64,000 nt of DNA from Squalus acanthias (lineage: Eukaryota). The stretch's first letter is position 1. Every line of letters begins with the position of its first letter. Shown piece after piece: positions 1,346 to 56,530 of this stretch. A program made the translations under genes and the position numbers. The notes under the pieces were generated by a model that was not told where the DNA came from, did no database searches, and saw only the letters and a list, made by a program, of their open reading frames with translations. Where the stretch lies: the NCBI GenBank assembly GCA_030390025.1, contig CM059431.1:123630001-123694000 (forward strand). The letters run 5' to 3'.

Positions 1346-1640
1346 CATAGGATTACATTGGATATACGGCACAGAAACAGGCCATTCGGCTCAACCAGTC
1401 CATGCCGGCGTTTATGCTCCACACGAGCCTCCTCCCGTCTTTCCTCATCTAAATCTATCAGCATAACCCTCTAATCCCTTTTCCCTCATATGCTTGTCTA
1501 GCCTCCCCTTAAATGCATCTATACTATTCGCTTCAACCACTCCCTGTGGTAGCGAGTTCCACATTCTCACCACTCTTTGGGTAAAGAAGTTTCTTCTGAA
1601 TTCCATATTGGATTTCTTGGTGACTATCTTATATTGATCT
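1346..1640 (-). mobile_element. CR1 LINE 3' end fragment
   Basis: ggcacagaaacaggccattcggc 3'UTR motif shared with the other CR1 copies here; minus-strand reading resembles the CR1 ORF2 C-terminus (FFTQRVVRMWNSLP). Confidence 0.75.
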
Positions 1641-18499: not shown

Positions 18500-19950
18500 T
18501 GTCAACTAAATATACCAGATTCATAGGAACGTTATCAAACTCACAGAACAGCAATGCCTTTGGGGATTTTGATTCACAAGGGAAGCAGTTTTAGAGCTGT
18601 GTAATATGTTGCAGGAGGACCTGCAGGCACACTGCAGAGTTTGCACAGTGACAACTGCCCCAAACTTTTTTGTCTCATGCTCATTCCAGGGGCCAGTAAG
18701 GACAACAACAGCATAAATCAGTTTGCCATGCATTGATGCACAAAACAGATGACTAATGCCTTGTTTACCAGAGGAAACAACTATATCACTTTCCCCACAG
18801 ATCCCAGGGAGTGACAGGCAAGGTTTCCATTGAATCACATATTTGCAAAAGTTCAGGGAGTCAATAATGACATGCATATAGCCCTTCATGCTCCACGAAC
18901 ACAGCAGTCCACCATACATGAACTGCAAGGACCATCTGCACTGGATATTACACGTCAATGCCTGAACCCAGGCAGCAGTCATGATTCACTCATTTTACAC
19001 CAGCCTACCTGATACCAGCAAGTTAAGGGCTGGAAACTGGACAATGAAGAACACTCACTGCTACCTTGGCTTATGGCCCCTGTGCGGAATAACTGCCCAT
19101 GAACCAAGCACAGATACAATGGCCCTGAAATTCGCCCCTCCGGCTTGCCGCGGGGGTAAGGATCGCGCGCGCACTTACCTACCGCGCCTGCCGTTGACCT
19201 CTCGGCCCACGGGAACTTCAGCTTCTGGGCCTGCTCCAAGTGCCAGCGTGCAGTGCTTGTGTGTCCCAGGGGCGTAGTTAGTGCGATGCGTCCCCTGGGA
19301 ACACGTGGGCCATGGAGAGCCAATGGCAGCAGACCATCTTTCATTCATAGACTTGACAGGAAGAGCTGTCAAATCTGTGAATTAAAATCGGCCCCAAAAG
19401 AACAGCTAAACTTCAAATAAATTTTTTTAAAAACCATCACATTTATAAAATAACTATAAGTTAAATAAATTAACTACTTTAAACAAACATTAAAATTTTT
19501 GAAAAAATTAAAATACTTTTTAACAGTGCTAAAAATAAACTTACCTTTCTTTAAAGTATCTAAAAAAGATAAACCTGTTGAAAAAATTTTTAAATTATAA
19601 TTAATTAAGCACTTACCTTGTTGAAAACGGGTCCTGCGCCTCCTTTTTAGAAGCGCAGGTTCTTCAATACTTACCCTCGCGTAGAAACCTGAAAAAAAAG
19701 CCTAAGTTTGCTGCGTGCGCGCAGCCTCTACCGCGCACGCAGTTCACCTCTGAACCGCTCCCTTCACGAGACCGGAAGTTCTGGTTTCCCGCGCACGCGC
19801 AGTGCATGCAGGAAACCGGCACTTCAGGACGCCTTACGGGTGAGTGCACAGCGCGTACTCACCCGGCAAGGGCTGAATTTTTGGCCCAATGAGTCGCATT
19901 AGAACCCTAGTCATGTGGGTTCTGGGCTCCTCCACACTTGCTGCAATGTA
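18500..19950 (+). pseudogene. Highly decayed Harbinger (HARBI1-like) transposase, interrupted by a MITE
   Basis: Remnants VQGVN..HIALHAP, PGSSHDSLIL, WLMAP; flanks of the MITE rejoin as AGA TAC AAT GAG TCG CAT = RYNESH, the motif in the better-preserved copies. Confidence 0.65.
19121..19887. mobile_element. Harbinger-type MITE, copy 1 (~770 bp)
   Basis: Imperfect TIRs ggccctgaaattc / gaatttttggccc; 3-bp TSD AAT; close paralog at 32348-33108. Confidence 0.85.
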
Positions 19951-32347: not shown

Positions 32348-33108
32348 TGGCCTAGAAATTCACGTGGCCGGCTTGCCGCGGGGGTAAGGATCGCGCGTGC
32401 TCTTACCCACCGCACCTGCCATTGTGTTTTGGGCCCACAGGAACTTCGGGTCCTGGGCCTCTCCCAAGAGCCGGTGCGCAGTGCTTGCGTGTTCCAGGGG
32501 CGCAGTTAGTGCGATGCGACCCCTGGGATCACGTGGGCCATGGAGAGCCAATGGCAGCAGACCATCTTTCATTCATAGATTTGACAGGAGACCTGTCAAA
32601 TCTGTGAATTGAAATCGGCCCCAAAAGAACAGCTAAACTTAAAATAAATTTAAAAAAACCATCACATTTATAAAATAACTATAGTTAAATAAATTAACCA
32701 CTTTAAACAAAAAATTTAATTTTTGAAAAAATTAAAATACTTTTTAAAAGTTATAAAAATAAACTTACCTTTCTTTAAAGTATCTAAAAAAGATAAAGCT
32801 GTTGAAAAAATTTAAAATTATACTTAATTAACCACTTACCTTGTTCAAAAGGGGTCTTACGCCTCCTTTTTATTAGTGTAGAATCTTCAATACTTACCCT
32901 CGCGTAGAAACCTGAAAAAAAATCTAAGTTTGCTGCGTGCGCGCAGCCTCTACTGCGCACGTGGTTCACCTAGGAACCGCCCCCTTCACCATACCGGAAG
33001 TTCCGGTTTCCCGCGCATGCGCAGTGCATGCAGGAAACCGGCACTTCGGAAAGCAATACGGGTGAGTACGCACTGAGTACTCACCGGGAAGGGCCGAATT
33101 TTGGGCCA
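32348..33108. mobile_element. Harbinger-type MITE, copy 2
   Basis: TIRs tggcctagaaattc / gaattttgggcca; colinear with 19121-19887. Confidence 0.85.
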
Positions 33109-38789: not shown

Positions 38790-39003
38790 TTTGGAATCAT
38801 TCCAGATTTGGCCGGCAATAGGGGGTGCGGGTTGCTTTCCATGATGTTGTTCTCCATGCCAGAAGCCATCTTCTGAGTAGGGGCCTAGAAGCGGCTTGTT
38901 ATCAGCCGTTGACGGACGGCCCTTGCAGTGGCAACATTGTGTGCCTCCCTCCTACCTTGGTGCTGCTGCTGATCATCCTCCTCATCCTCCTTCTCCTCTT
39001 CCT
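38790..39003 (-). pseudogene. Displaced C-terminal acidic tail of the Harbinger transposase
   Basis: Continues ..PPEEEEE from 51656 as EEEKEDEEDDQQQHQGRR, matching the paralog 55065-55628 (PPQEVGEEEEEDDDEENDEEQERGRR). Confidence 0.7.
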
Positions 39004-39571
39004 TGTAGAATTCGCAATATATCGCGATTTTATTAATAAGGAGAAAACACATAGTTTCGTTCAAACAGCTTTTATTTCAGCAGAATGCTGGCAGGTTTAA
39101 AGTGGACACAAGCAGCCTGTAAAAATGGCCGCCGCACCTCGTGACAGAACATTCTAGACTTTTCAACAGGCAGACAAGATGGCGTTCCAATAAACATTTG
39201 TGCAAGATCGATTAAGAGTCAGCACAGTGAAGATAATACACGAGACATTATGGGTTTGCAGTATACACATAGATACTGAAATCGGTCTCCCAGGTGCAAA
39301 GGAAAGCCATTGTACCGAGTAATCAAGGGCCCATCCAAAAGACATTAATATGTAAAATCCCAACGACTCTACGATGAGAGAGCCGTTAGCAGGTAGTTAT
39401 ACAGGACACTTGGAAGCCCCAAAACCCCTCCAGGGAGATTACCGACCGATTTAACAATGGGAGAAATATTAACAGGTACTCAGACATTTACGAGTAGCCC
39501 CGAAACCCATTAAGAACGGAGATCACCCATACAAGACATTTGAGCGCCAGACCTTAAACAAAAGAATGGAC

Positions 39572-39660
39572 ATTATAGTTGGGCGGGAAACGGAAGATTT
39601 TGCACTATAATTGCAGGCTCCAAACCGTCCATCTTTCTCTTGCTGCTCTTATCATCGTGG
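39572..39660 (+). promoter_or_regulatory. Putative LTR core promoter: GC box, ETS-like CGGAAG, TATAAT, pyrimidine-rich start region
   Basis: gggcggg 39581-39587, cggaag 39591-39596, TATAAT 39606-39611; same TATAAT plus pyrimidine tract layout in LTR 1-681. YY1-like AAAATGGCCGCC / CAAGATGGCG upstream (39122, 39175). Confidence 0.6.
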
Positions 39661-40156
39661 CTGCTCCTGTGTACTCGTAGTTGGGCTTCTGCTTGCCTGT
39701 TGCCTCTTCTGAAAAGACTGTTGAACTTTCTGATCCGTTCGGATCTACCTCGTGTCGCGTAACGAAGACCTATATTGGTAACCGGTATCGGAACCAAAAA
39801 GGCCCGAGAAGAGATGAGATGAGATGAGATGAGAAGAGAGGAAGACCATATCCATCGCCACGGTCAGTAAATCCCGACTGCGCCTGTAGGTCGATTAGCC
39901 AAGTTTTCCTCGCCAGGAAGACTTCTTCGAACTTATAACGAAACATATCGTATCGATGATATCGACAACTGTGCTCGAAAAGTACCTGTTAAACCAACCA
40001 ACACAGGTCTTCATCACAGCAGACGTTCCAGCCTGCTAGCCGGAGCAGCAGAAGCAAGTAAACAAGTGGGACCAGGAGATCTCCTGACCGACACGTGGGT
40101 GCTGCGGTGAAAAACATCCGATCAGCTATTCGGAATTTCTCCGAGTTATCACGAGT

Positions 40157-40165
40157 GGTGAGCAT
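40157..40165 (+). promoter_or_regulatory. Putative major splice donor within LTR R region
   Basis: G|GTGAGCAT conserved in all four LTR copies in the window (358, 40158, 51187, 63398 minus). Confidence 0.6.
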
Positions 40166-40370
40166 GAGTCTCGAAATCCTACGAATCTAGTTTAGGATAG
40201 ATATTGATAGGGGAGGGTTTAAGGATTAAGGATATTTGTAATGTGTGCCCCTATTTACTTTGTGCCGTTCATTCCTCGTTTCCCTAAGATCGACTATATA
40301 ACTGTTTGTAAGATTGTACTGTCATTAATCTGTGCTTATGACATGTATTTCATAATCTTAAGTATCATGC

Positions 40371-40376
40371 AATAAA
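40371..40376 (+). terminator. Polyadenylation signal AATAAA (functional copy expected at 51400-51405)
   Basis: Positionally conserved in the second LTR family (526-531). Confidence 0.7.
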
Positions 40377-40444
40377 GATTTTCCATTTCGTACCATTCAA
40401 ACCGAGTCTACATGAGTTTCATCTCCATTACTGCTCTCGCATCT

Positions 40445-40626
40445 AAGTCCAGTGTCTAGAACCGTAAGGGAGAGTGATTCGAACCACTCACAGGTGTGTC
40501 TAGTGTTCCCAGACTGGCTGGAGACCAGAACAGGCAACAAGGCCTAGACCCGCACTGACATACAGGCTGCACAGAGCCGCGTGAATCTCACAGGCTGCGA
40601 GACACGCAGGGTCAGAATCCCTTACA
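40445..40626 (+). other. Structured U5 RNA element
   Basis: GTAAGGGA (40464-40471) pairs with terminal TCCCTTAC (40618-40625), enclosing stems GAGTG/CACTC, GTCTAG/CTAGAC, TGTTC/GAACA, CTGAC/GTCAG, GCGTG/CACGC. Confidence 0.6.
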
Positions 40627-40630
40627 GAAA

Positions 40631-42442
40631 ATGGCGACCGCGGCAGGACACTGGCAGCGAGAGGGTAGTGTGTTAGATTTTGGAATGACTGTACGAAATG
40701 TTATGCAGGAAAAGATAGCGGATTATGTGTTTGGAAAGGTTAATCTAACTAAGAAATGGATAAGTGAATTGTTAGCGGATAAGAGCCCACTAGAGGCAGC
40801 TGAAAGGTGGACAGATAGTAAAGAACATAGAAAGACACTTGAGAAAGCAGTCTGGCTTTTGTGTTACAAAAGGCAGGTTCAGATTTCAAACCAGACCATT
40901 ACAGCGCTAGTAGCTCGAATCAGTCATTTAGAGGGAGAAATGGATGAGAAGGTTTCTGGAGGGGAGGTGCTCATTAAGAATTTAAATGAGTTACACCAAG
41001 AAAGCCAGGAAGTCTCCAGTCACCTTAAAACAAGGATAGATTATCTCGAGTGCCAGGTCACTGAGGCAAAATTGAATGAGAGCAGGTTAAAGGAAAGATG
41101 TAACCGCCAAGCTGCCCAGATAAGAACTCAAGAAGAGAGCTTAACGGGGGTTAGGGCGGCATATAAGTTGGCCCTTGAGGATAAGTTTCAGGGAGCCGAT
41201 CATAGCGCCTGCCAAAGGGAGATAGAGCACCTCAAAAAGGCCGTGAACAATGCGAACGGCATGGTGTGCCTTATCAATCCGTCGGCACACCAGCCGCTAG
41301 TAAGTGAGAGATTTAAAAAATCCCCACCAAGTAAAGCAGAAGAAGTAGTAGCCACTGCGCCCTCCGCGCCACCCAGCTATTTGGAAACCTGGGTTAGGGA
41401 GGAAGCAATGGAAGAAACAAAAGAGCCCATTGAAAAAGAAGTAGGAAAGGGATCGTTGTATCCAGTAACGGGTATTAAAAGGGGCCCAAGCAGAAACGGT
41501 GGGGAAGAACCGGGGGATCTCCTCGGACAGCTGGTGTTGCCTCACAGTTCACATCAGCTGAGAGCTATGATAAATCACGTACGGAAGCTGACCGAGGCAG
41601 ACGACCCTTCCGTACATTTCCGAGAAGTTGAGCAAGCCGCAGCCATTAACGGCTGCGATGATGGGGAGACAGCAAAAATGCTGCTGTTCTCATTAGACAG
41701 CTCGGTCCTTCAGTGTCTCTCAGGCGAGAGCAAGAGGGGAACCAAGAGTTATGAGGAATTAAAGAATGAGGTCCTGGAAGTGTTGGGGGCGAACGACGAA
41801 GGTCCGTTTGCTAGAGTGGGACAGACAGTGCAGATGGAGGGAGAACCCCCGAAGGTTTTTGCCGACAGGCTGTGGCCAGTATATGAGCGCAGCTGCCTAG
41901 GTGCACCCGAGCGCGAAGATGTGGAAGGCACCGCTTTAACTCATTGGCTTAGGTGCATAATAGCCAACAGTTTACCAGCCGTCAGAGAGCAGGCAAAAGC
42001 ATGGTTTGATCCCAATGACCCCAACATTACGGAAGAGTCGGTCTTGAATCGACTCACGTTAGGTTATCGCAATATAAGGGGTATGGCAACACGTCCCCTT
42101 AAGGGAAGAGTACATGAGGTACGACCCGCAGCCCCGTATCAAAGAGAGTGGCATCAGGAGGGTAATCGCGCCCCACAGGCAAGTAATGCTTGTTACGGGT
42201 GTGGGAAGACAGGGCACTGGCGCAAGCATTGCAGGAACCCTTGGAAGGATTCCAAGGATAAAAATCCCGCGGTCCGAGCCCAGGCGCCTGTCCCGGCTAA
42301 GGAAGCTAGTGCACCCACCCCTCCTGACGACCTAGAAGCAGTGTTAGGAGCCATGCGCAAGCTGGTCTTGAATGCGCGTGGACAGGTGACGGTCGCAACC
42401 GGCCCCGTAGGTGCCGCAGGACCGTCTAATAGTACCCCATGA
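40631..42442 (+). CDS. gag: Gag polyprotein (603 aa): N-terminal coiled coil, PSAPPSY late motif, capsid-like region, one CCHC knuckle
   Basis: Intact ORF; CYGCGKTGHWRKHC (42191-42232); heptad-rich residues ~90-205; Kozak AAAATGG. Confidence 0.93.
   Translation: MATAAGHWQREGSVLDFGMTVRNVMQEKIADYVFGKVNLTKKWISELLADKSPLEAAERWTDSKEHRKTLEKAVWLLCYKRQVQISNQTITALVARISHLEGEMDEKVSGGEVLIKNLNELHQESQEVSSHLKTRIDYLECQVTEAKLNESRLKERCNRQAAQIRTQEESLTGVRAAYKLALEDKFQGADHSACQREIEHLKKAVNNANGMVCLINPSAHQPLVSERFKKSPPSKAEEVVATAPSAPPSYLETWVREEAMEETKEPIEKEVGKGSLYPVTGIKRGPSRNGGEEPGDLLGQLVLPHSSHQLRAMINHVRKLTEADDPSVHFREVEQAAAINGCDDGETAKMLLFSLDSSVLQCLSGESKRGTKSYEELKNEVLEVLGANDEGPFARVGQTVQMEGEPPKVFADRLWPVYERSCLGAPEREDVEGTALTHWLRCIIANSLPAVREQAKAWFDPNDPNITEESVLNRLTLGYRNIRGMATRPLKGRVHEVRPAAPYQREWHQEGNRAPQASNACYGCGKTGHWRKHCRNPWKDSKDKNPAVRAQAPVPAKEASAPTPPDDLEAVLGAMRKLVLNARGQVTVATGPVGAAGPSNSTP
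40632..40649 (+). promoter_or_regulatory. Primer binding site, tRNA-Arg (UCG/CCG type)
   Basis: TGGCGACCGCGGCAGGAC is the exact complement of the vertebrate tRNA-Arg 3' end GTCCTGCCGCGGTCG-CCA as I recall it; 5 nt (GAAAA) downstream of the LTR end. Confidence 0.9.
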
Positions 42443-45400
42443 CTAGAACCGGCGCAGCCCGTCTACCTGTGTCCGCTTAGCTATGATGCGTGGAGGCGAC
42501 CTGTGGTGGAGATGGAGGTAGAGAAACAGAAGGGTAGTTATTTGTTGGACACGGGAGCTTCTTGCACCATAATCCATACAGATAACCCTTTTGACTCGCC
42601 GCTATCTACCAAGGTCCCATTCACGTTAGCAGGGTTCACAGGAAAAGAACAGGCTGGCACGTTTTCCCTTCCGCTATCCATTCGTTTAGGAACACTTCGC
42701 CTTAAGTGGAAGTGTATACTGATGGCATGGCAAAAGGGGGGTGGAAGAGGTATTCTCGGGTCCGATCTCCTAGCGGGACACGGGATCCTCGTGGACCTCA
42801 GAAATCACTGTCTCTGGGGGGCTAAAGGTGAAAAAGGCGAGGTATTAGTGATTCCGGGGGAGGAAGAAACAGGGGTCCTGTGTACCGTACAGCCATCCGG
42901 AGGCTACGACCTCAGGCTCATGGTCGCAGATGTCCCAACGGACATGCAAACGTACGTGTCAGATAATATGCACGCGTTTGCAACCCACAAGCACGATTGT
43001 GGGAGAGTGGTCGGGTTTGAGGTCAGCGTAGATGGGGACCCCATGACCCGACCCCAAAAGCAGTATAACTTCCCCAAAGAAGCAGAACCCGATATGGAGA
43101 CAGCAATGTCCTCCTTGGTGCAGCAGGGCGTGTTGAGGCCGATAGCCACACACGTGAACTCCCCATTATGGCCGGTTAGGAAGCCGGATAATTCGTGGAG
43201 AGCCACGGTGGACTACAGAGTCCTTAACAGTAACATTCCCGCCTGCGCGCCCACAGTAGCAGCAGTTGCCGACCTAATAGGGAGCATCCCAGCGTCCGCG
43301 ACCACGTTCACGGTGCTGGATATCTCGAACGGTTTTTGGTCCATCCCGCTGCGGCGAGAGGACCAGTACAAGTTTGCCTTTACTTTCAAAGGACAACAGT
43401 ACACGTGGAACTGTCTGCCACAGGGTTTCCACAATAGCCCCAGTATTTTTCATCAGTGTATGGCAGGAAGTTTAAAGGAGTTTAGTCAGCCCAATCAGAT
43501 AGTACAGTATGTGGATGATTTGCTCCTATTTACGGACTCAAGGGAGGAGCACGGACCACTACTGGACGAGTTATTGGAGCTGTTAGCGAGAAAGGGTTTT
43601 AAAATAAACCCTAAGAAAGCACGTATCGGTCAACGGGAAGTAAAATTCCTGGGACTGACCATACGCGCTGGGGAAAGAGCCATAGACAAAGCAAGGAGGG
43701 AGTCGGTGCAAGAATTACCGATTCCCAACAACGTAAGGGGTGTGAGGTCCTTCTTGGGACTGACCGGTTACTGCAGGGATTTTATCGAAGATTATGCGGC
43801 CACAGCGGCGCCGCTCCTCCGACTCCTCCATAAGGGGGTGGAGTGGTTTTGGGACGAGGGCTGCCAAGCAGCCTTCGAGAAGTTAAAAGGGGATCTGCAG
43901 ACCGCGCCAGCCTTAGGGGCCATAGATGGGGGGAAGGAGTTTTTCCTGGAGGTAGCTGCCAGCGGAGACAGCTTAAGCGCCGTGCTGCTCCAAGAGCATC
44001 ACGGCAAGCTGAGGCCGGTTGTCTATTCATCCAGGGTGTTAACGGATGTGGAGAGAAGTTTCTCCAATTGCGAAAGGCACCTTTTAGCCACGCATTGGGC
44101 TGTGAAAAGATCAGCGATCTTCACAGGGCTCTCTCCCATCACTCTCCTCACACATCACACACCAACTAAGATGCTTCTGGATGGGAGGATTAAAGACGGG
44201 ACCGTAAGCAGCGCACGCATTGCGCGTTGGACCCTTCTTCTCTCCCAGTTGGATCTTAGAGTAAAAGGTCTTTGCGAGCCCAGGCTTGCGGCCAATTTGG
44301 TATACCCCGGTATAGCCCACCGGTGTTCGGTGGAAGGGGTGTGGGACGTCAACATAGGTTTACGGGCCGGGATACATCCCACTGGGCGCGAGATTTATGT
44401 TGATGGGTCTAGCACAGTATCCGCTGGCGAGCGACTCACAGGGTGTGGAGTTTATGACCCTGCGGCAGACCTTGCCCTGGCGATCAAGCTCCCTAGCACC
44501 ATGAGCGCGCAGCAAGCTGAGCTGTCTGCCGTGGTGTACGTTGTGACCCACCCAGACATTTTCCCAACCCCATACACGATTTGCTCGGACAGTATGTTCA
44601 CCTGCAACTCGTGTACGGAATACCTGGCCATTTGGTCCCGCCGCTGATACACCTCCGCGGACGGGCGACCTTTAACGGTGAAGCCCTTGCTGGAAAAGAT
44701 CTTAGCAGCAGCAGTAGGGGAGGAAGGAGAGATTTTCATCCATAAGGTGAAGGCTCACTCCTCCACAGAGCCCCGTGGGGAAGGCAACCGGCAGGCGGAT
44801 GCGCTTGCCAGGGAAGGTGCCCGCGACGGCACTTTCTGGAACCCCTATAGGACCGGACCCATAGCAGCGGTCCGAGGCGGGGACGGGAATTCCGGGAACC
44901 CCAGGGTAGCATTGCCCCTAGACCTTAAGACCGTCCAAACCCAGGATCCCGCCCTAAAAGCAGTCCTAAAAACGATTGCTGAGGGGAGGCAGGTAGAAGG
45001 TCCGTACAGTACGGCAACCCTTTCAGTTAAGGAAGGCATGCTGTTCCGCGAGGAGCAGTGGGTTGTGCCGCAGCAGCACAGGAGGGAATTCCTCCAGTTG
45101 GCTCACGAGGGACCAGGGGCAGGGCACCCCGGGCCCGAGGTTACCTGGCAACGGGTAGAGCAAGCGGGATGGTGGCCAGGGCTCAGGGAACAAGTCCGCG
45201 AGTTCTGCGCAAACTGTCTTGTGTGCGCTGCAAACAACCCAGACCCCCAGAAAAGGAAGGTGCCCATGGGACACGTAAGAAGGGTAGAGGGACCATGGCA
45301 ATCGATACAGATCGACTATATAGGACCCCTGCCCACCACCCAGGGAGGTTATAAGTACTGCCTCGTCCTGGTGGATGTGTTTTCCAAGTGGGTGGAAGCC

Positions 45401-46966
45401 TTCCCTTGTCGAACAGCTACGGCACTGGGAACAGCAAAAATCTTGGTCCGGGAAGTGTTCTCGCGGTGGGGACTTCCCCGTTTTGTGGAGTCAGACCAAG
45501 GGAGTCATTTCACCGGCCAGGTGATGCAGACCACCCTCATGCTTTTGGGCATTGAAGGGAAGTGGCACGTAGCACACAATCCCCAGTCATCCGGGATTGT
45601 TGAACGTATGAACCGGACCCTGAAGGAGAAATTGAGGAAAGAGACTTGGAACTCGCCCCAAAAATGGGCGGAAGTTCTGCCTTTAGTCCTCATGGGGGTC
45701 CGGGCCAGTCAGTCAAAAAGTACGGGGTACTCCCCGCACGAGGTAATGACCGGGAGGCTCATGCGAACCCCCACCCATGTGCTAGCCCCGGTGCTCACTG
45801 AGGGTCAGCTCCAGGAGATAAGCAGGGACAAGTTCGCCCAGACTCTCTTGGAGCGCCTGAAGCAAGTTTATGAGCAGGCGGCTGGGAACATGGGAAGGCA
45901 GCATCAGGGCAATCGCTTGTTGCTGGAACCCCGCAAAACGCGGGAATGGGAAGTGGGAGACCAGGTCATGGTCAGAAACTACGCCAGAGTAGGGAGTCTG
46001 GAACCACTGTATATGGGACCCTACAACATTGTAGACAAGGCAAGTCCCATGGTTTACGCCGTAAAAGTACCTCGGCGCACTAAGTGGTTCCACATAAACC
46101 AATGCAAACTGTACCAGCCAGGTGCGCAAGGGAAAACTACAGGGGTAAATCCCGCCAACGGGAAAGCACAGCCCCAGGTAGGACCACAAGGCACACAGGC
46201 AGGCATAGCAGCTTGCATCAGGGGAAGGGACATCCCGGACGATCATGCAGCGTTTTTCTGGAATTGGGGGTTAGATGAGGAAGAATTCAGGGTACCCGGG
46301 TCAGATGAGGATAGTGCAGATGAGAATAGTGATGATGACGGGTGGTTCCTGAGGAACGGTCTGGAGGGAATGGGGGCTGTAGGTAGAGATCCACACAGGG
46401 TGGACACACGAGCTGCAGGTCCCGAAGACAGGAGGGAGGAGCTAGAGGAGGCAGGGCCAGCCGCTATGGGAGCACAGAGAGTACCGGTGTGGCTCCCAGA
46501 GATGTGGCCGCCCGCTTTGAACGACCAGTCCTCGGGGGAGGCAGAGATCACGAGTGAAGGGCCGCCTGCTGGGCCAAGCAGGGCGGAGCCACGAACTGCC
46601 AGCCCCGAGGTTAGGGAGGCGGAGTCAGCGGAGGCGGAGCCAGCGACTGTGATGGAACCCCAGGTCATCCCGATGGAAGTCTCGGAACCCGGTCCGTCCG
46701 TCACGGAACCCCCGCCCATAGCAACTCCCCGTAGGTCAAGTAGAGAACCCCAGCCCAGGAGGATGTGGTCATGTCCCCAGACTGCCCCAAGGCGAAAATT
46801 TAAGGTTAAGATAACCCAGTTACAGACCGGCCACATCGCAGCAGTAACAGGCTGCGGCAGATCAGAGGGAAGGGTCAGCGCAGCAACAGGCTGCGGCAGA
46901 TCAGAGGGAAGGGTCAGTGCCCTCCCACCGTCGGGAAGAGCTCGCAGCAGCCTTCTCAGAATTTAA
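42443..46966 (+). CDS. pol: Pol (PR-RT-tether-RNase H-IN), in frame with gag; one premature TGA at 44645-44647
   Basis: LLDTGA (42548), LPQG, YVDD (43508), degenerate RNase H (EVAAS..ERHLLA..LTHH), active-type RNase H (YVDGS..QAEL..SDS..KVKAH..GNRQAD), IN HHCC + QIDY/SDQG/VERMN + GPY. Both ORF halves are in the same frame. Confidence 0.95.
46841..46918 (+). repeat. 39-bp in-frame tandem duplication at the end of pol
   Basis: gcag(t/c)aacaggctgcggcagatcagagggaagggtcag(c/t) x2 = AVTGCGRSEGRVS / AATGCGRSEGRVS. Confidence 0.95.
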
Positions 46967-47252
46967 AGGGGCCGCCCTGAGAACGGGCAGCACTGTATAG
47001 TAAGAAGTTCTAAGTTTTAAGTTTATAGTTCAAGGTTAAGTATATAGTTTTAATAAGGTTAAGTTTGTAGTGTTTTTAACAGAAAACGATAAAATGATGG
47101 GAGTTTTAATGATAGGTTTAGTTAAAGTTTATTCAGCGAACGTTGAAGTTTACGTGAGGCGAGGTCAGGGGACCCGCTCACCCTTCACAAAAGCCAGAGA
47201 CTCTTGCGAGGCTGGCTACCTCATTCTATCTGATCACAGGAACCAAGGAAGG

Positions 47253-49592
47253 ATGGAACGAATTCTAGTATTGCTCGGGGTAATCGGATGTGGATTGGCC
47301 TATCGAGGCCGCACCAAGGATGTCGTGGTGTTTGGATGTTCCGGGGACACGGCCCCCATCGCGGTGGATGGGACCGGAAGACGGGAGGCAGAGGAGACCA
47401 GCACCTATTTCCACAAGGGAAGGTGGCCAGGATGGCTGGGAACGAACTCAACGGAGTATTCTAGCACATCGGGGTTTGCCTACAAAGAGACTTCTTTACT
47501 GTGCCCCAAAGTAAGGATCATCGCATCCAGGATCAGCGTCACCGTCGGCAAACGGATTTGTTTGACTTGTAGTGGGAAGGTCCCATTGAGCCGATGGTGG
47601 TGGCTGCGAAAGCTGAGCAACACTATGAGGAACTCGTCGGTCGAGTGGGAACGACTGGGTAATAATACCCATCGGACAATTACGGGGACAGACGGACAAG
47701 TGAAAGTCTGTTGGGACAAATGGTGGGAACCGGATGAGGGAATTTATGTATGTATGTGGGGGTCAAAGTACGTTTGCCCCAAAGGCATCTCCATATTTTT
47801 CATTAATCAATGGCAGGATAACGGACAGGGGATGAGGTGGGATGCGAGCACCAGGGGGTGCGGAGCCCCATTCTCCCCGATCCCAGTAAATGCCACTGAG
47901 CTCATTACGCGCCCATGCAAAGCCCCGCCCACGATTCCGATGGTTCTAGCTGAGGAAGAAGGGTGCCCTAAAACTAGTAAGGGACCCGGGAATGGTTTGG
48001 TACTGGTCCCCACAGACCAGATACTATTTCAGGGGGTACATTACGCGGTGGCCTCGGTGATTTTAAATCTCACTCAGGTGCGGTTACCAGAGTGGTGCCC
48101 CAAAAAGACGGAACAGTTGTATCAGGTCCTGTTGACCAAGATGTTCAGACAATTTTACGAATTCGATTTCGCGGAAATTGATAAAACAAGTTTGTACACC
48201 GCACCACAAGAAGTTTTGAATCAAGCAGGGAGGCAAAGAAGGGGTTTGGTGAACGATGCGTTCACTGCTTTTAACACAGGTACATCTGTGGTCAACGCTC
48301 TAGACAGTGTGGAGCTGCAGACCCAGATTAATGGTTTAAAGACACAATTAAAAGACATTCTAACAGATGAGAATAAAGTGGTAGGGTCGGGTCTACACGA
48401 GGACCAAGCCATGACTCTCCATTTAAAGGAAATTATAGCAGAGTTGGAGAAACATGCAAAGACGGTAAATGCCCTGATTAGGGAAGATCGGAATGCATCC
48501 GATCAAGCTGCGCAGAACAAGGTGTGCGTGCTTTACGGGGCGTGGTTACTGGGCGAGGGCCGCAGTAATTTGGAGGATTTGGTTCCGTCCTGGATAAGTA
48601 ACAAACACCTGCGGGCGCTCCACCCTTTTCAGAACGCATTAAGTCCGTGCCAACTCAGGCTAGCTTCAGAAGCGTACCCAGTCCCCGTGGACTGCGGACG
48701 ATCAAACCATACCATTATGGGAATAGTATTACGCATGCCGGTTTTGGGCGACACAGCAAAGCCCGCCCCGGTGTATCGGGTAGAGAACATTGGTGTCATT
48801 CAGGGGGGAGCCCACATTCGTTATGCTGCGGTTCCACCTTACGTCATCCGCTGGGAGCAAACGATGACAGGTACAGATCTCTCTGGTTGTCGTGGCAGGG
48901 GAGCACACATAATACTGTGCCCCCAGCACTTGAATGCCTTTTTAACACCACAGTGCGGGTTCAGAACGACTGGCGCCAAGTCCATGAATTGCACCATGGA
49001 GGCAATGGCACAAGATCATGTGCCTCCGCAGGTAGCATACATCGGGGGTGGAACATATTGTGTTACCACTGCAGCGCAACACTACCAGCATGGAAACCGT
49101 AGCCGGTGTCCGGTGAGTGACAGCAGTTTCTGTTTTAAACCCAGGGCGGAAGTTCAAGTAGCACAACAGCGAATTATCCCAATCCCTGAACCATCCACTG
49201 TTCACCTCACAGTAAAAGAGAATTTCACCGACTTGCAGCGATTCGTCGCGCATTTTGGATACCTCATTCCCCCTCTCCCTGAACACCTCACCAAACTTTT
49301 AAAAGCCGTCGCGGTGTCACAGAAACATTTTTACACATTAGAGCAGAAAACTGTTGAAATAGGAACAGACATTTTGGATGTAGTAGTTCCACCGTGGTGG
49401 AATCTGTTCACTAATATTGAAGTGCCTTCATGGATCAGAATAGCCTCCCACATTTTAGTCGTATGCCAAGTTTTCATTGTAGTGTACCTATTGGTCGTAC
49501 ATTGTAAAAGAGACAAACGCCTCACCAAGCATGAAAACACGGGAGAGTGGCGAGAACGTTACGTGCGCGTGCACGATGAAAGCACCGTGTGA
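47253..49592 (+). CDS. env: Envelope glycoprotein (779 aa): signal peptide, Ig-like domain, F-like class I fusion protein, TM, tail
   Basis: MERILVLLGVIGCGLA signal right after a candidate acceptor (cacag| 47239); LTC..WWW..DEGIYVC; furin RQRR (48231-48242); fusion peptide plus heptad repeat; Cys-rich region; TM 49440-49505. Confidence 0.9.
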   Translation: MERILVLLGVIGCGLAYRGRTKDVVVFGCSGDTAPIAVDGTGRREAEETSTYFHKGRWPGWLGTNSTEYSSTSGFAYKETSLLCPKVRIIASRISVTVGKRICLTCSGKVPLSRWWWLRKLSNTMRNSSVEWERLGNNTHRTITGTDGQVKVCWDKWWEPDEGIYVCMWGSKYVCPKGISIFFINQWQDNGQGMRWDASTRGCGAPFSPIPVNATELITRPCKAPPTIPMVLAEEEGCPKTSKGPGNGLVLVPTDQILFQGVHYAVASVILNLTQVRLPEWCPKKTEQLYQVLLTKMFRQFYEFDFAEIDKTSLYTAPQEVLNQAGRQRRGLVNDAFTAFNTGTSVVNALDSVELQTQINGLKTQLKDILTDENKVVGSGLHEDQAMTLHLKEIIAELEKHAKTVNALIREDRNASDQAAQNKVCVLYGAWLLGEGRSNLEDLVPSWISNKHLRALHPFQNALSPCQLRLASEAYPVPVDCGRSNHTIMGIVLRMPVLGDTAKPAPVYRVENIGVIQGGAHIRYAAVPPYVIRWEQTMTGTDLSGCRGRGAHIILCPQHLNAFLTPQCGFRTTGAKSMNCTMEAMAQDHVPPQVAYIGGGTYCVTTAAQHYQHGNRSRCPVSDSSFCFKPRAEVQVAQQRIIPIPEPSTVHLTVKENFTDLQRFVAHFGYLIPPLPEHLTKLLKAVAVSQKHFYTLEQKTVEIGTDILDVVVPPWWNLFTNIEVPSWIRIASHILVVCQVFIVVYLLVVHCKRDKRLTKHENTGEWRERYVRVHDESTV

Positions 49593-50023
49593 TCGGAAAA
49601 TGGCGTCACTCCCGCGCGCCACGTGCGCTGCGGAAGCTTGTACTCAATGATGATTTTTCAGAGATTGTAAATACGTTGGAAACTCGACATGTTTTAAGAG
49701 TTGGGGTTTGATTATTTTGGTGATGGTGTTGATTGTTTGGTTTTGGGTTTTGTTTTTCCTTTCCCTGAATAAAAGATGAATATACAGGTGATACGAGAGG
49801 CATCGGCCTGGTTACGCCGGGAAGGAAAACAAGTGGTGTAAGTTTAAGGGCAAATAATGCCTACGGTGATATAAAATGTAATTTTCTTGGGAAATAAGGA
49901 CGACACAGAGACCCTAGCTAGGTTAAATTTATGGGATTAATTTGCTGGATTCGGAGAGAAATCGAGATAATATTGCTCACCACTATGATTTTTGATACGA
50001 TAAGCGGAGTTATTCGCATCAAC

Positions 50024-50032
50024 AGGAGGGAC
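50024..50032 (+). promoter_or_regulatory. Polypurine tract (short)
   Basis: AGGAGGGAC immediately 5' of the 3' LTR TG. Confidence 0.7.
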
Positions 50033-51655
50033 TGTAGAATTCGCAATATATCGCGATTTTATTAATAAGGAGAAAACACAGAGTTTCGTTCAAACAGCTT
50101 TTATTTCAGCAGAATGCTGGCAGGTTTAAAGTGGACACAAGCAGCCTGTAAAAATGGCCGCCGCACCTCGTGACAGAACATTCTAGACTTTTCAACAGGC
50201 AGACAAGATGGCGTTCCAATAAACATTTGTGCAAGATCGATTAAGAGTCAGCACAGTGAAGATAATACACGAGACATTATGGGTTTGCAGTATACACATA
50301 GATACTGAAATCGGTCTCCCAGGTACAAAGGAAAGCCATTGTACCGAGTAATCAAGGGCCCATCCAAAAGACATTAATATGTAAAATCCCAACGACTCTA
50401 CGATGAGAGAGCCGTTAGCAGGTAGTTATACAGGACACTTGGAAGCCCCAAAACCCCTCCAGGGAGATTACCGACCGATTTAACAATGGGAGAAATATTA
50501 ACAGGTACTCAGACATTTACGAGTAGCCCCGAAACCCATTAAGAACGGAGATCACCCATACAAGACATTTGAGCGCCAGACCTTAAACAAAAGAATGGAC
50601 ATTATAGTTGGGCGGGAAACGGAAGATTTTGCACTATAATTACAGGCTCCAAACCGTCCATCTTTCTCTTGCTGCTCTTATCATCGTGGCTGCTCCTGTG
50701 TACTCGTAGTTGGGCTTCTGCTTGCCTGTTGCCTCTTCTGAAAAGACTGTTGAACTTTCTGATCCGTTCGGATCTACCTCGTGTCGCGTAACGAAGACCT
50801 ATATTGGTAACCGGTATCGGAACCAAAAAGGCCCGAGAAGAGATGAGATGAGATGAGATGAGAAGAAAGGAAGACCATATCCATCGCCACGGTCAGTAAA
50901 TCCCGACCGCGCCTGTAGGTCGATTAGCCAAGTTTTCCTCGCCAGGAAGACTTCTTCGAACTTATAACGAAACATATCGTATCGATGATATCGACAACTG
51001 TGCTCGAAAAGTACCTGTTAAACCAACCAACACAGGTCTTCATCACAGCAGACGTTCCAGCCTGCTAGCCGGAGCAGCAGAAGCAAGTAAACAAGTGGGA
51101 CCAGGAGATCTCCTGACCGACACGTGGGTGCTGCGGTGAAAAACATCCGATCAGCTATTCGGAATTTCTCCGAGTTATCACGAGTGGTGAGCATGAGTCT
51201 CGAAATCCTACGAATCTAGTTTAGGATAGATATTGATAGGGGAGGGTTTAAGGATTAAGGATATTTGTAATGTGTGCCCCTATTTACTTTGTGCCGTTCG
51301 TTCCTCGTTTCCCTAAGATCGACTATATAACTGTTTGTAAGATTGTACTGTCATTAATCTGTGCTTATGACATGTATTTCATAATCTTAAGTATCATGCA
51401 ATAAAGATTTTCCATTTCGTACCATTCAAACCGAGTCTACATGAGTTTCATCTCCATTACTGCTCTCGCATCTAAGTCCAGTGTCTAGAACCGTAAGGGA
51501 GAGTGATTCGAACCACTCACAGGTGTGTCTAGTGTTCCCAGACTGGCTGGAGACCAGAACAGGCAACAAGGCCTAGACCCGCACTGACATACAGGCTGCA
51601 CAGAGCCGCGTGAATCTCACAGGCTGCGAGACACGCAGGGTCAGAATCCCTTACA
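50033..51655 (+). repeat. 3' LTR (1623 bp)
   Basis: Direct repeat of 39004-40626. Confidence 0.97.
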
Positions 51656-52657
51656 TCCTCCTCCTCCTCCTCAGGTGGTGCACCAATCCCTGGTGGCATT
51701 GGCTGGGTCCTCAGGATTGCCAGGTTGTGAAGCAAGTGAGTACTGCAGGGCTCCTCCTGAATGGTCCAGACAGTGGAACCATTGCTTGAGCACGCCGATC
51801 GTCTACTCAATGATGTTCCTGGTGGCGCTATGGCTCTCATTATACCGCAGCTCGGCAGGGGTGTTGGGGTTACGGAGCGGTGTCATCAGCCAGGTGCAGA
51901 GTGGATAACCCATTTCCCCGAGGAGCCATCCAATTGGGTGATGCGGTGCCTGGAAAAGGTCTGGCACACCAGTCTGGCACAGGATGAAAGCATTGTGGCT
52001 GCTGCCAGGAGAGCGGGCATTGACGGCGAGTATGAGCTGTCTGTGGTCACAGACCAACTGCACATTTAAGGAGTGGAACCCCTTGCGGTTTCGGAAAACC
52101 TCTGCATTTTCATGCGGTGCCCACAATGCCACATGTGTGCAGTCAACGGCGCCCTGCACCATGGGGAAGCCCACTATCCTAGCAAAGCCACATGCGCGTT
52201 CATGCTGTTTGGCCCGGGTCATGGAGAAAGAGATGTACTGGTATCTCCTTTTATACAGGGCATTTGTCACCTCCCGGATACAGCAATGGACAGCGAACTG
52301 GGAGATATTGGCGATGTCCCCAGTCGATGCTTGAAAGGAGCCACTGGCATAAAAGTTCAGAGCCACTGTCACCTTCGCTGCCACCGACAGAGACGTCCTG
52401 GTCCTCAGTTGAGGCTGCAGATCTGGTTGCAGCAGATGGCAGAGCTCAGTGACCACCTCCTTGCTGAAGCACAGCCTGCGCAAACACTGCTTCTCAGACA
52501 AATGAATGTAGGTGAATTGCTCCCGGAATACCCTGGGAGGGAAAGGTCTCCTGTGCAGAGGCCTGTTGGCCCTCCTCCCTCTGGCCATGTTTGCCACTCT
52601 CTCTCTGCGTCTCTGATGCCTCCGATTCTGCAGGTGCAAGATGACGCCCTGAATCAA
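51656..52657 (-). pseudogene. Harbinger transposase (HARBI1-like DDE_Tnp_4), disrupted
   Basis: CLRRLCFSK..KVTVALNFYASGSFQ..VQGAVDCTHV..NRKGFHSLNVQLVCD..PGSSHNAF..WLMTP..RYNESH; stop, deletion and proviral insertion near the 3' end. Confidence 0.92.
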
Positions 52658-53414
52658 TGCAGCCCCCAGAGTCTCTTCTAAATCGATGCAAGGAAGGTCA
52701 AATCAAAAAGAACCTGCAAAGTGCTGTTCAGTACCCAGAACTCCTTCACACAGTGTTGAATCTCTCCAGAAGTCTCTCTCTCTCTCAGAATGCGTGGTGC
52801 AAAAATGTCGTCAACAAAAAAGACAGGAAGAAGTCGGCTTTAAATAGTGCTCCCCCAGTCCCTTCCCGACTGCAAAACGTTCCCCTCTACCTGTCGTGGC
52901 TAGCGGCAGGCGGAAAGGCAGGGGGCACCATTCAATATCCGGTCCGGAGCGCTACCGGGGCGTTGCACGCTCGACTGACGTCATGATCTGCGGGCGCAGG
53001 AGATCGTGGTGGTAGTTTCTAGTGCCGCCGCAAAATGTCTGGTCAATTTTGCGAGTGGCGGAAACATCGCCGTGCCCGGGCGCTAGTTGCTTTGTGCCAC
53101 GTTAGCGCCTAGGGCGTTAACTGGAGGCGCTAATCAAGCGAAATTTTCCCCCTGTATGTTTCACTTGACCAAAAGCTAGTTTAAATTTCTGGCTCTGTTA
53201 CAGATGGCAAGTTGAAAATGTGTAACTATACATAGGGAATCAGTTTGGATTGTGTTACAAAGTATTGGATTTCAAGTGCAATGTGCAGTAATGCTAACTC
53301 TAATGAATGAATCGTGAAACACGCGATTTTGAATTAAAATTGAACACAACTCATGATTCAACAGTGAAATATTGCATTTTTTTCTTGGGGAATGATGCTG
53401 GGCGTGAGATCAAA

Positions 53415-53947: not shown

Positions 53948-56530
53948 GGGGGTAAAAAATCGGTACCTTAGCACCTCCTATTAGTGTCAGCAGATGCCGC
54001 TAACGGGGTGCTGGAACAGTATCGCTGGGGCGAGGCGAATGCAACACCGCACGCCAAATCCCACCACCCCCCCTGCAGTGCCACCGCTATCAGTTATCGC
54101 CAGGAGCGTCAATGCCAGGTGGATCGTGACGTCAGTGAGTGTGCAATGCTCACTAAGCACCCAAACTGCGAAATTGATTGTCGCCACCTACCTTAGCGCC
54201 TGGAGTAAACAGCGACAGGGAGAGCTGGCATGAAGCACCAGGAAGCCGGCTCCAGGAACGTTATTTAAAGGGGTCATCAGTAATGAGTCGCAGCTGTAGG
54301 TTAGTAGAGTTTCAGTGCTTTCTTGTCAGTTTCAAGAAAGTCCAACAGTCTCATTCTATAATTTCAAGGTTATTTAGTATCAGGAGTGTTGTGGCAACTA
54401 AAAAGTAATTACATTTATTCTTTAAAAAAAAATCAAACTGCTGCAGTTGGTTACATTAATGGTGGCTGTACTAGCAGTCAACCTTGCCCTTCAGGATCGA
54501 TGGCGGAGGGAGCGGAGGCAGCAAGAAAGACTGGAACATGTGGCCAGAGGGAGGAGGAAAGCAATCAGGGCTCTCAGCAGCAAGCCTTACCCTCTGAGGG
54601 TATTCTGAGAGAACTTCTACCTCCAATTAAGCGAGGAGCAGTGTATTAGAAGGCTCCGCTTCGCCAAGGAGGTGGTCACAGAACTCTGCCACCTCCAACA
54701 AGCAGACCTCCAGCCTCAGATTAGGGTGACCACAGCTCTCTCAGTGGCAGTCAAGGTTACCTTTGCCCTCAATTTCTTCGCCAGCAGATCCGTCCAGTCT
54801 GCAACAAGAGATATCGCTAACATCTCACAGTTCGCCATCCATCGCTGCATCCGGGAGGTCACAGAGACTCCCTACAGAAGGAGAAGGGACTACATTTCCT
54901 TCCCCATCACCAGAGAGAAACAGGACGAGCGTGCATGTGGCTTTGCCAGGATAGCAGGACTCCCCATGGTGCAGGGCGCCATTGACTGCACCCACATAGC
55001 TTAGCGGGCACCGCATAACAATCCTAAGATCTTCCGTAACCGCAAAGGCTACCACTCACTTAATGTGCAGTTGGTGTGCAACCCCAGACAGCTAATCCTC
55101 AATTTCAATGCCCGCTATCCTGGCAGCAGCCACGATGCCTTCATCCTGCGCCAGACCGGTGTGCAAGCACTCTTCCAGCCACCATGTCAAGCTCATGGCT
55201 GGCTACTCGGAGACAAGGGCTATCCGCTCTCCACCTGGCTCATGACTCCCCTTCACAACCCCAACACTCCTACCCTGCAGTCATATAATGAGAGCCATGC
55301 TGCCACCAGGAACATCATCGTGCAGACCATCAGCCTGCAGAAGCAACAGTTCCACTGCCTTGACCGCTCGGTAGGAGCCCTCCAGTACTCGGCTGAGTGG
55401 GTGTCCCATTTCGTGGTGGTCTGCTGCATGCTCCACAACTTGGCCATCATGAGGGACCAGCCCTCGCCACCAGGGATTGTGGGACCACCTCAGGAAGTGG
55501 GAGAGGAGGAGGAGGAGGACGACGATGAGGAGAACGATGAGGAACAGGAGCGAGGGAGGAGGCAGCCACTCAATCGGACTTCCAGAAGAGTGGTCTGTGC
55601 CCACCTCATCAGACTGTGGTTCGAATGAATTAAACCCCAGATTCCCATCATTCCATCCCTGTTGCAGGCCATTTCACAGCGCAAAACTCAAATGCGACAC
55701 ACCACAAAAGAATCCAAACTGCATTAATAAATTTATCAAAAGTCAGTGAACACATATTTACAACAAAAATATGAACTATTCACCCTTGTGCAATCCCTTA
55801 GTGCCTCTCATTACTGTGCCTTTGCCTACTCTAGTGCTCCTACGAAGTGTTGGCCCAGTGGCTGCAGCACGGCTGGTGGAAGGCTGTTGAGTGTCTGTGC
55901 GGGAGACGTCAGATGGCCTTGCAGGATGCCCTCGACCAGCTCTGGGCCTGGAAGGCCTGGCTGTAGACTTCACCACCTCAGCATGGGCGGCAGCAGTCTG
56001 GGCTGGCTGGATGACAGGCAGTGACAAGGGCAATGGCGGAGTAGCAGTGGTGGGAGCAGGAATGCTGTCATCCTGAGAGAAGACAGTAGGTTCCTGCTCC
56101 ACTGACCCACTGCCACTCCCCTGGGGCAGCACCTCAGCATCCCTAGCAAACTGTTGGAGCAAAGATTGCTGACCTGCTGCGACACCGTGAAAGCCCCGGT
56201 CGACGGTGGTAGAGTCTGAGATTGGATGCCACCAAGCAAAGACTCCAGTACAGCACTAAGACATGGCGTCGCTTCTGCCTGTGCTGCAATGGAAGCTGCC
56301 AGATCGCCCATCACATGCGGCATCAGGTCTGGGTCACCATGGTCTAACTGGGAGTCTACAATCCTTTGCAGACTGGAAATGATGGGCTCCATGGTGTGTG
56401 CAGAGCCTATTTGGCGGCGGTCTCCTCCACACTCCTTACCATTGCCGAGAGGCTCTCAGGCACCCTTGCCATTGCATCTATCATCTCCGTGTGCATGTCC
56501 ATCACCATTCTTCTAAACGCCTTCCCAAAT
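53948..56530. mobile_element. Harbinger element (transposase on +, partner-gene remnant on -), right part truncated
   Basis: Left end gggggtaaaaaatcgg; convergent gene remnants; 55780-56190 homologous to 14050-14510. Confidence 0.7.
54459..55628 (+). pseudogene. Harbinger transposase pseudogene (paralog of 51656-52657)
   Basis: VKVTFALNFFAS..VQGAIDCTHIA*..YPGSSHDAFIL..LLGDKGYP..CCMLHNL; stops and frameshift. Confidence 0.92.

Follow-up and report, generated by a model that had tools for sequence, protein, structure and literature searches.

A young provirus from a large, recently active retrovirus family in Squalus acanthias

The 64,000-nucleotide stretch of the Squalus acanthias genome analyzed here (hereafter the window; GenBank assembly GCA_030390025.1, contig CM059431.1, positions 123,630,001 to 123,694,000 of the forward strand) holds a provirus of 12,652 bp at positions 39004–51655, whose layout, long terminal repeat (LTR)–primer-binding site (PBS)–gag–pol–env–polypurine tract–LTR, can be read from the sequence. 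A first-pass annotation, made from the letters of the window, had taken this element for a nearly intact lokiretrovirus, that is, a member of a lineage lying beside the Retroviridae rather than within them. The locus therefore raises two questions: to which branch of the retroviruses does the provirus belong, and did its family spread as an infecting virus or by copying itself within cells? The evidence favors, with a probability that we put at roughly 0.8, the view that the provirus is young, that its endogenous retrovirus (ERV) family is very large and was recently active, that it belongs to the Retroviridae proper in a deep clade shared with frog, Xenopus and coelacanth ERVs, and that the family replicated as a virus under selection.

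Provirus age, intact siblings and selection

A direct-repeat scan and global alignment showed that the two LTRs are 1623 bp each and have TG...CA ends. No indel separates them, and of their 6 substitutions 5 are transitions; the Kimura two-parameter distance is 0.0037. The provirus is flanked on both sides by TCCT. Because CT-rich simple sequence surrounds it, this duplication alone is weak evidence; 4-bp duplications of unrelated sequence also flank 5/5 other family insertions for which both flanks were read (two full-length copies and three solo LTRs). A 4-bp target-site duplication is a feature shared with foamy viruses. The PBS begins five bases beyond the 5' LTR and is an exact complement, at 18/18 positions, of the 3' end (with CCA) of the host tRNA-Arg(TCG). 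A 22-mer covering the T arm and acceptor of this tRNA occurs 460 times in the genome at no more than 1 mismatch, and ARAGORN called tRNA-Arg(tcg) at 3/3 loci examined. Most of the listed 22-mer places fall on a single contig (C26, ~38.99–42.22 Mb; loci L064–L068), where tRNA-Arg(TCG) stands beside tRNA-Ser(GCT) in long tandem arrays with a period of ~1.6 kb. Both gag and env are open, and a TGA codon in the RNase H domain is the sole interruption of the pol frame. The equal LTRs with about six substitutions, the 4-bp duplication, the perfect PBS, the open gag and env beside a single pol nonsense codon, and the recent date of insertion that the first-pass annotation had read from this locus thus all held up.

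The 5' LTR carries a TATA-like box (40295) and a hexamer resembling a poly(A) signal (40371), which together suggest a U3 of ~1.3 kb, a short R and a U5 of ~0.23 kb. The CpG observed/expected ratio is 0.87 in the LTR, 0.72 in the interior and 0.42–0.46 in the flanks. By t = d/2u, the window copy would be ~8 million years (Myr) old at a rate of 2.2e-10 and ~0.8 Myr old at 2.2e-9, both of them assumed rates from which the host's own may differ. In the accessible text of Han 2015 (PMC4422223), the slower rate is the one assumed for sharks and the faster is quoted for mammals.

To gauge the size of the family, the genome was searched with DNA queries; the LTR and env totals are first-look candidates, and 40 candidates were scored per query. 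The LTR query returned 3852 candidates, the 40 scored giving 41 listed matches at 94–100% identity, and the env query returned 3970, with 39/40 of those scored being full length at 98%. A 14-mer of the PBS occurs 3495 times, compared with 2 for a control, and all 10 places sampled proved to be an LTR end followed by a PBS, none being a tRNA gene. Unpaired LTR matches were solo LTRs in five of six cases, with the sixth lying in an internally deleted copy. Four full-length siblings, reached through their LTR pairs, have interiors 98.2–98.7% identical to that of the window copy. In each of the four, gag, an uninterrupted pol (1494–1507 codons) and env (826–854 codons) are open, and the LTR pairs carry 0, 1, 1 and 0 substitutions. 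Among the five copies compared, the window copy is the oldest and the only broken one. It could make Gag and Env and no complete RNase H or integrase, and therefore would depend on its siblings. The expectation that intact siblings exist was thus confirmed by the LTR and interior search of the host assembly that the first-pass annotation had proposed. A further copy of the same family lies on contig C7 ~0.89 Mb before the window (locus L093) and is 96–97% identical over pol–env.

Comparison of the five copies gave dN/dS values of 0.07–0.22 for env (10/10 pairs), 0.06–0.17 for pol and 0.09–0.57 for gag. Synonymous divergence between copies (dS 0.7–4.9%) exceeds the LTR divergence within copies (0–0.4%) about ten-fold. 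Since dS is some ten times the LTR divergence and dN/dS is low, the differences between copies arose during replication under selection on gag, pol and env. Read from these sequences, the pattern would be that of an infecting virus, several lineages of which entered the germ line, rather than that of copies decaying in place.

Near-identical env sequence is also found outside this assembly. At least half of the sampled env 31-mers are present in 20 public sequencing runs from 10 studies, which carry six organism codes (two runs have no code); because the 31-mers are found across those runs, several labelled organisms contain a near-identical env. In two runs presumed to be RNA (X7 and X9), 30/30 bins were covered and contig depth was 1457–7767 over the LTR, 205–622 over env and 18–206 over gag–pol, whereas depth in the DNA run X1 spread about six-fold (99,143–622,778) without this ordering. 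The depth pattern of X7 and X9 may fit transcripts, the run type being a guess and contigs being blind to starts, ends and strand. From X21, a raw-read RNA run under another organism code, 0 reads matched, an outcome that speaks neither for nor against expression. No joint for X7 or X9 appears among the 15 of 57 joint rows listed, all of which belong to X1, and no run on record as RNA is among the listed holders of env words.

Position among the retroviruses

As defined in the portion of PMC7947760 available to us, lokiretroviruses (Loki) are recognized by four traits: their reverse transcriptase (RT) forms the sister clade of all other retroviruses, RNase H is accompanied by a tether, the integrase lies close to CGIN1, and Env is similar to PF00523. 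The same portion describes the dual RNase H as common to all retroviruses, and the rows of its host table mark Loki in 0/3 genomes of Orectolobiformes (Chondrichthyes) and leave Callorhinchus and Leucoraja unmarked.

We placed the provirus in an RT-plus-tether tree of 72 rows, made by an IQ-TREE quick search under LG+C20 with 13 Ty3/Gypsy rows as outgroup and with Shimodaira–Hasegawa-like approximate likelihood ratio (SH-aLRT) support. Twelve near-duplicate or fragmentary rows were removed ahead of tree building, and a further 4 with long branches were removed for the approximately unbiased (AU) tests. Reference labels were checked against the RT strings printed in the available part of the PMC7947760 supplement. 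Locus L011 (IMG/VR) was identified as snakehead retrovirus (SnRV) by an RT string that agrees letter for letter with the SnRV row of the supplement, and the eel protein P0011 bears strings otherwise found only in the Loki rows printed there. Foamy, gamma, delta and epsilon references came from motif scans of viral contigs, several of which were matched to the SFV, BFV, EFV, MuLV, KoRV, FLV, REV and WDSV rows.

In this tree, the 3 Loki rows (support 99) branch off as sister to the remaining 56 rows (100), and the provirus, together with its 90%-identical relative P0173 (100), falls among those 56. It sits in a 10-row clade (89) with frog, Xenopus and coelacanth proteins, which their sources label 'NYNRIN-like' or 'Gypsy integrase-like'; the former name is attached to many pol relatives. 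At the base of the 56 rows is a polytomy of this 10-row clade, the pair P0181 (turtle-named) and P0182, and a group of foamy, SnRV, epsilon, gamma and delta viruses. The RT of SnRV is 37% identical to that of the provirus and groups with the epsilon/gamma/delta side (92) rather than as its sister, in a position that is unsure because the branch is long. Holding the 10-row clade with Loki was rejected by the AU test (delta log-likelihood 38.4, p 0.00016), and holding it with six exogenous foamy rows was weakly disfavored (12.8, p 0.023). The RT motifs, too, are unlike every Loki row, and unlike the fish foamy-like ERV rows (AciFLERV, AliFLERV, ZFERV-2) and CoEFV, in the part of the PMC7947760 supplement that could be compared. 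Together, these sequence comparisons place the clade, in all probability, above the point where Loki branches off and apart from the foamy viruses, SnRV and the epsilon, gamma and delta groups.

The provirus has the full LTR-to-LTR layout of the Retroviridae, the domain order protease (PR)–RT–tether–RNase H–integrase (IN) and an RT within the retrovirus clade. It is a retrovirus proper, on a deep branch that has no name as far as compared, and not a lokiretrovirus. The RT phylogeny that the first-pass annotation had called for thus puts the provirus within the non-Loki retroviruses and in no named genus, which tells against the lokiretrovirus identity in substance if not to the letter.

Several features recall SnRV. 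Gag is of similar size (603 codons here, 625 residues stop to stop in SnRV), and in each virus it has a coiled coil in its N-terminal part and a single CCHC motif. In both viruses one stop codon separates gag from pol within the same frame, and U5 ends in ..TTACA, the PBS following a few bases later. Their Envs are also homologous at the profile level, as described below. SnRV differs in its longer Env (1134 residues against 779), in an extra 3' open reading frame (ORF), in its distant RT and in its PBS, for which 0 matches were found at up to 3 mismatches, although SnRV is probably primed by a tRNA-Arg as well. The 15-mer complement of the SnRV PBS occurs 108 times in the genome (control 2), yet 0/3 loci examined (L089–L091) hold a tRNA gene; the repeats are dispersed and may be another ERV family using that primer.

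The broad kind to which the provirus belongs is already in print, both as SnRV/foamy-like ERVs in cartilaginous fish and as F-type retroviral Envs. In the accessible text of Han 2015 (PMC4422223), CmiERV lineage I of Callorhinchus clusters with SnRV, and two complete CmiERVs, only one of which belongs to that lineage, are dated to 54.5 and 75 Myr with LTR divergences of 0.024–0.033, as against 0–0.004 in the provirus family. Available excerpts also report catshark 'Spuma' ERVs (PMC10699275) and a screen of 13 cartilaginous fishes for identical-LTR ERVs (Wang & Han 2023, PMC10435555). These published ERVs share the host class and the broad SnRV/foamy-like region of the tree with the provirus, beside which they were set by their descriptions rather than their sequences. 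No title or abstract start among those listed by our literature searches describes an F-type Env for SnRV-like viruses or for the provirus lineage, though subscription papers and supplements may hold one.

Coding capacity, envelope and surroundings

The stop-to-stop gag frame spans 40559–42442, with its first ATG at 40631. The N-terminal half of Gag is coiled-coil and there is a single CCHC zinc knuckle (42191–42232); a Pfam scan matched the protein to no family. Its stop codon, TGA at 42440–42442, is followed by CTAG, and gag and pol lie in one frame across this single TGA; the gag end and pol start are preserved in 5/5 family copies compared. UGA-CUAG is a known read-through context.

In pol, Pfam matched a retroviral protease, RVT_1 (E 1.7e-36), RT_RNaseH_2 (E 2.4e-21), PF00075 (interrupted by the nonsense codon), an H2C2 zinc domain and the integrase core. 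The second, canonical RNase H retains its acidic residues. The tether is degenerate because AAS and THH replace DAS and TDH, which are the motif positions of active Ty3-type RNase H. Among solved structures, RT is nearest to that of the murine leukemia viruses MLV/XMRV (E 5.7e-65), followed by foamy PR-RT (2.4e-58), Ty3 (5.5e-42) and HIV (~1e-15), and the integrase is nearest to that of prototype foamy virus (PFV; E 2.2e-34) and then Ty3 (2e-29). Downstream of the integrase, pol continues into a tail of ~280 residues (46115–46966) that is acidic and proline-rich and has a short motif duplicated near its end; the long pol frame is preserved in 4/4 siblings. One annotated frog protein (P0008) continues from pol into an apparent signal peptide and Ig-like env start.

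Env opens with a signal peptide, followed by a head that is rich in cysteines and bears an Ig-like signature, then by RQRR at residues 327–330, a hydrophobic stretch with long helices, and a membrane anchor. The Ig-typical signature, C...W...DEGIYVC, lies in the surface part (window ~47520–47800), and it is from this signature that the head is predicted to be Ig-like; a Pfam scan matched the N-terminal 220 residues to no family. UniRef names one shark Env relative 'Ig-like domain-containing protein', and SnRV Env carries similar ...Y.CMW motifs. With HMMER, an exhaustive search recovered 48 relatives at E≤1e-3, the named ones belonging to Rhinoraja, Pristiophorus, Mustelus, Chiloscyllium, Pelodytes and Xenopus, a host range (sharks, skates, frogs) that parallels that of the pol clade. 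Compared with hhalign, the Env profile matched SnRV Env at a probability of 84.6% (E 6.7e-6) over 283 collinear columns that include the furin site, and simian foamy virus (SFV) Env faintly (E 0.003, probability 10.6%). Pairwise BLASTP against SnRV Env was not significant. One of 20 Env relatives gave a sub-threshold match to Baculo_F (E 0.0011).

An AlphaFold2 model of Env residues 221–779, made from a 33-row alignment, had a mean predicted local distance difference test (pLDDT) score of 71.2, with beta domains at 85–97; a single-sequence model (34.1) was unusable. In a Foldseek search of the PDB, the rows listed from the top 50 were all paramyxo- or pneumovirus F proteins, the best being human parainfluenza virus 3 F (E 1.3e-11), and 245 matches reached E≤1e-3. 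VIA-align likewise gave F proteins for 50/50 listed entries, with Z 8.6–11.6 over 235–343 aligned residues, the top Z of 11.6 spanning 324. The best matches in BFVD were glycoproteins of arli-, lispi- and chu-like viruses, baculovirus F and paramyxovirus F0, and the model also matched the Envs of walleye epidermal hyperplasia virus 1 (WEHV-1; E 1.3e-8) and walleye dermal sarcoma virus (WDSV; E 7e-5). The best ESM Atlas score, 0.84, was to a chordate cluster and serves as a lead only.

As modelled, Env would have the features of an F-type class I fusion protein: a domain I-II-III core, a long heptad repeat A (HRA) helix, an F2-like segment before the furin site, heptad repeat B (HRB) and an anchor. 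The fusion-subunit fold and the F2-like segment before the cleavage site are shared with F proteins of paramyxo- and pneumoviruses, baculoviruses and errantiviruses, which differ from it in sequence (6–17% identity in alignments), in the extra N-terminal head of ~220 residues here and in that the gene lies within a retrovirus. The resemblance to Mononegavirales F that the first-pass annotation had claimed therefore stands at the level of fold, by Foldseek and VIA-align, and fails at the level of sequence, where neither PF00523 nor a significant PDB profile match was found. Going by the model matches, the Env of walleye epsilonretroviruses may be F-type as well, and because these Envs also match, an F-type Env is not specific to Loki. 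Foamy virus Env has an F-like core according to the available part of PMC11468914 (gp130; PDB 8RM0/8RM1). F-type Env is evidently distributed over several deep retroviral lineages.

Table 1. Provirus features in window coordinates
Feature	Position	Strand	Evidence
Left target-site duplication, TCCT	39000..39003	+	direct reading; 4-bp duplication in 5/5 other family insertions
5' LTR, 1623 bp, TG...CA	39004..40626	+	repeat scan and alignment
PBS, overlaps gag ATG	40632..40649	+	18/18 complement of host tRNA-Arg(TCG) 3' end (+CCA)
gag, 603 codons + TGA	40631..42442	+	open frame, standard code
pol, same frame as gag	42443..46966	+	open frame and Pfam domains
PR	42491-42775	+	Pfam/structure-sequence match
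RT	43175-43663	+	Pfam/structure-sequence match
Degenerate RNase H-like tether	43850-44248	+	Pfam/structure-sequence match
RNase H	44390-44821	+	Pfam/structure-sequence match
Nonsense TGA within RNase H domain	44645..44647	+	sole frame interruption of window copy
IN zinc	45065-45241	+	Pfam/structure-sequence match
IN core	45293-45583	+	Pfam/structure-sequence match
IN C-terminal, SH3-like	~45947-46108	+	Pfam/structure-sequence match
env, 779 codons from likely ATG (stop-to-stop ORF from 47040)	47253..49592	+	open frame, different frame from gag/pol
Env part modelled (residues 221-779), matching paramyxo/pneumovirus F	47913..49589	+	predicted structure
Furin-like RQRR site of Env	48231-48242	+	sequence motif
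Env membrane anchor	~49431-49502	+	sequence
Polypurine tract core AGGAGGGA, ending two bases short of 3' LTR	50024..50031	+	read from sequence
3' LTR, 1623 bp	50033..51655	+	repeat scan and alignment
Right target-site duplication, TCCT	51656..51659	+	direct reading

The surroundings of the provirus hold other mobile elements. Just downstream are two fragments of PIF/Harbinger-type transposases, at 51803–52702 (−) and 55005–55628 (+), which match Pfam DDE_Tnp_4 at E 5e-21 and 4e-30, respectively. An open frame with RVT_1 (E 1.3e-20) at 15025–15765 (−) is the remnant of an unrelated retroelement, and two pairs of older dispersed repeats are 84–86% identical (14185–14484 with 55903–56202, and 19120–19880 with 32348–33102).

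Competing readings and significance

On the reading that we prefer, a retrovirus proper that multiplied by infection, transcription would start near the U3 TATA box, Gag-Pol would be produced by read-through at UGA-CUAG, and Env would be translated from a spliced mRNA and cleaved at RQRR. Env would then bind the cell through its Ig-like head and fuse membranes in the manner of paramyxovirus F. The family would have spread as a replicating virus, with selection on all three genes, env included, and not as a copy-and-paste element tolerant of decay.

The identity first proposed, a lokiretrovirus, from the sister lineage of all sampled retroviruses, residing in a cartilaginous fish, accounts for the LTR-gag-pol-env-LTR order, the tether with RNase H and the F-kind Env with its furin-type site, coiled coil and anchor, and it draws some support from an integrase slightly nearer to Loki than to the other references. 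The dual RNase H and F-type Env that the first-pass annotation had treated as defining do not discriminate, since the former is common to all retroviruses and the latter is reported for foamy viruses too and here matched the Env of SnRV by profile and those of walleye epsilonretroviruses by model. The RT lies across a branch of support 100 from the Loki clade, the AU test rejects their union (p 0.00016), the RT motifs depart from all Loki rows in the supplement as available (PMC7947760), Env has no PF00523 match, a Pfam scan of the provirus proteins matched no smc-like gene, and the host class bears no Loki mark in the host table rows cited above. We regard this identity as very improbable. 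Less remote, and still unlikely, is a basal foamy-like virus, a member of the Spumaretrovirinae in the wide sense and thus a cartilaginous-fish 'endogenous foamy virus'. Such viruses are reportedly in print, going by the title of a study by Wang, Chen and Cui (2023, J Virol), and the integrase is most like that of PFV among solved structures, foamy PR-RT is the second-best structural match of RT, and the Env profile matches SFV Env weakly. Foamy viruses have a Gag without a Cys-His knuckle and make Pol from its own mRNA rather than as a Gag-Pol fusion; the provirus has a CCHC Gag and, in 5/5 copies, gag and pol in one frame across a TGA in a read-through layout, as well as a tRNA-Arg primer and no accessory ORFs. 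Union of its RT with the foamy rows is disfavored (p 0.023, a weak result obtained with exogenous foamy references), and foamy Env is outside the listed top structural matches of the provirus Env. The F-like core and large fusion subunit of foamy Env (PMC11468914, in the part available) are a likeness, and the fish foamy-like ERV rows accessible in PMC7947760 carry other RT motifs. Membership in an SnRV-like group finds Env homology on its side, and the RT is not sister to that of SnRV.

It is also conceivable, and in our view improbable, that the family is now an intracellular LTR retrotransposon, whose env is open merely because the copies are young and for which infection is not needed. The very high copy number, the frequency of solo LTRs (5/6 unpaired matches) and the existence of internally deleted copies are what such an element would leave. 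The env dN/dS, however, is as low as that of pol in 10/10 pairs, and copies differ from one another at synonymous sites ~ten times as much as the two LTRs of one copy do; owing to this combination, the differences must have arisen with env under selection, which weakens the retrotransposon explanation.

Several points weigh against the reading of a selected, replicating retrovirus proper. The five copies were chosen by LTR similarity, and the pairs compared share branches. The tree is a quick search with SH-aLRT support only, its 10-row clade stands at 89 in a basal polytomy, and the AU groupings were fixed after the first tree had been viewed. The tree left out ERV-L, beta, alpha and lentivirus references and the foamy-like ERVs of fish and sharks (CmiFLERV and the 2023 cartilaginous-fish endogenous foamy viruses), and because of this the provirus lineage may already bear a name. 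An integrase tree did not resolve at its base, and integrase identity is highest to Loki (42%), ahead of MuLV (37%), SnRV (36%) and SFV (30%). Neither the window Env nor any of 20 relatives (0/21 proteins) matched PF00523 at E≤0.1; the Env sequence found nothing below E 1.9 among PDB sequences, and the Env family profile found none that was significant (coronavirus spike 0.1, foamy gp130 0.28, henipavirus F 0.42). The predicted F-like fold hangs on one model of middling confidence, and splicing, read-through, cleavage and receptor binding are each proposed from the sequence.

Even so graded, the locus bears on how retroviruses are classified and on how they enter genomes. An F-type Env and a dual RNase H are together insufficient to call an element a lokiretrovirus. 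With thousands of candidates, some LTR pairs free of substitutions and purifying selection on env, the family looks like an ongoing or very recent large-scale invasion of the germ line; the complete ERVs of this host group in the accessible text of PMC4422223 are, by contrast, dated to tens of Myr. More tentatively, and as a possibility that we would not yet favor, the family may represent a still-infectious elasmobranch retrovirus, either exogenous or reinfecting the germ line, and maybe the earliest branch of the Retroviridae proper, in which case the ancestral retroviral Env would have been F-type and the gamma-type Env a later replacement. That proposal starts from an F-type Env with an Ig-like head that would be shared in kind with Loki, SnRV, foamy viruses and walleye epsilonretroviruses. 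If the placement is true, a lineage close to the root of the retroviruses, alive now or until very recently, would be present in the oldest jawed vertebrates, and the question of what the first retroviral envelope was would become testable with intact genes instead of fossils, alongside the Envs of Loki, foamy viruses, SnRV and, by model match, the walleye viruses.

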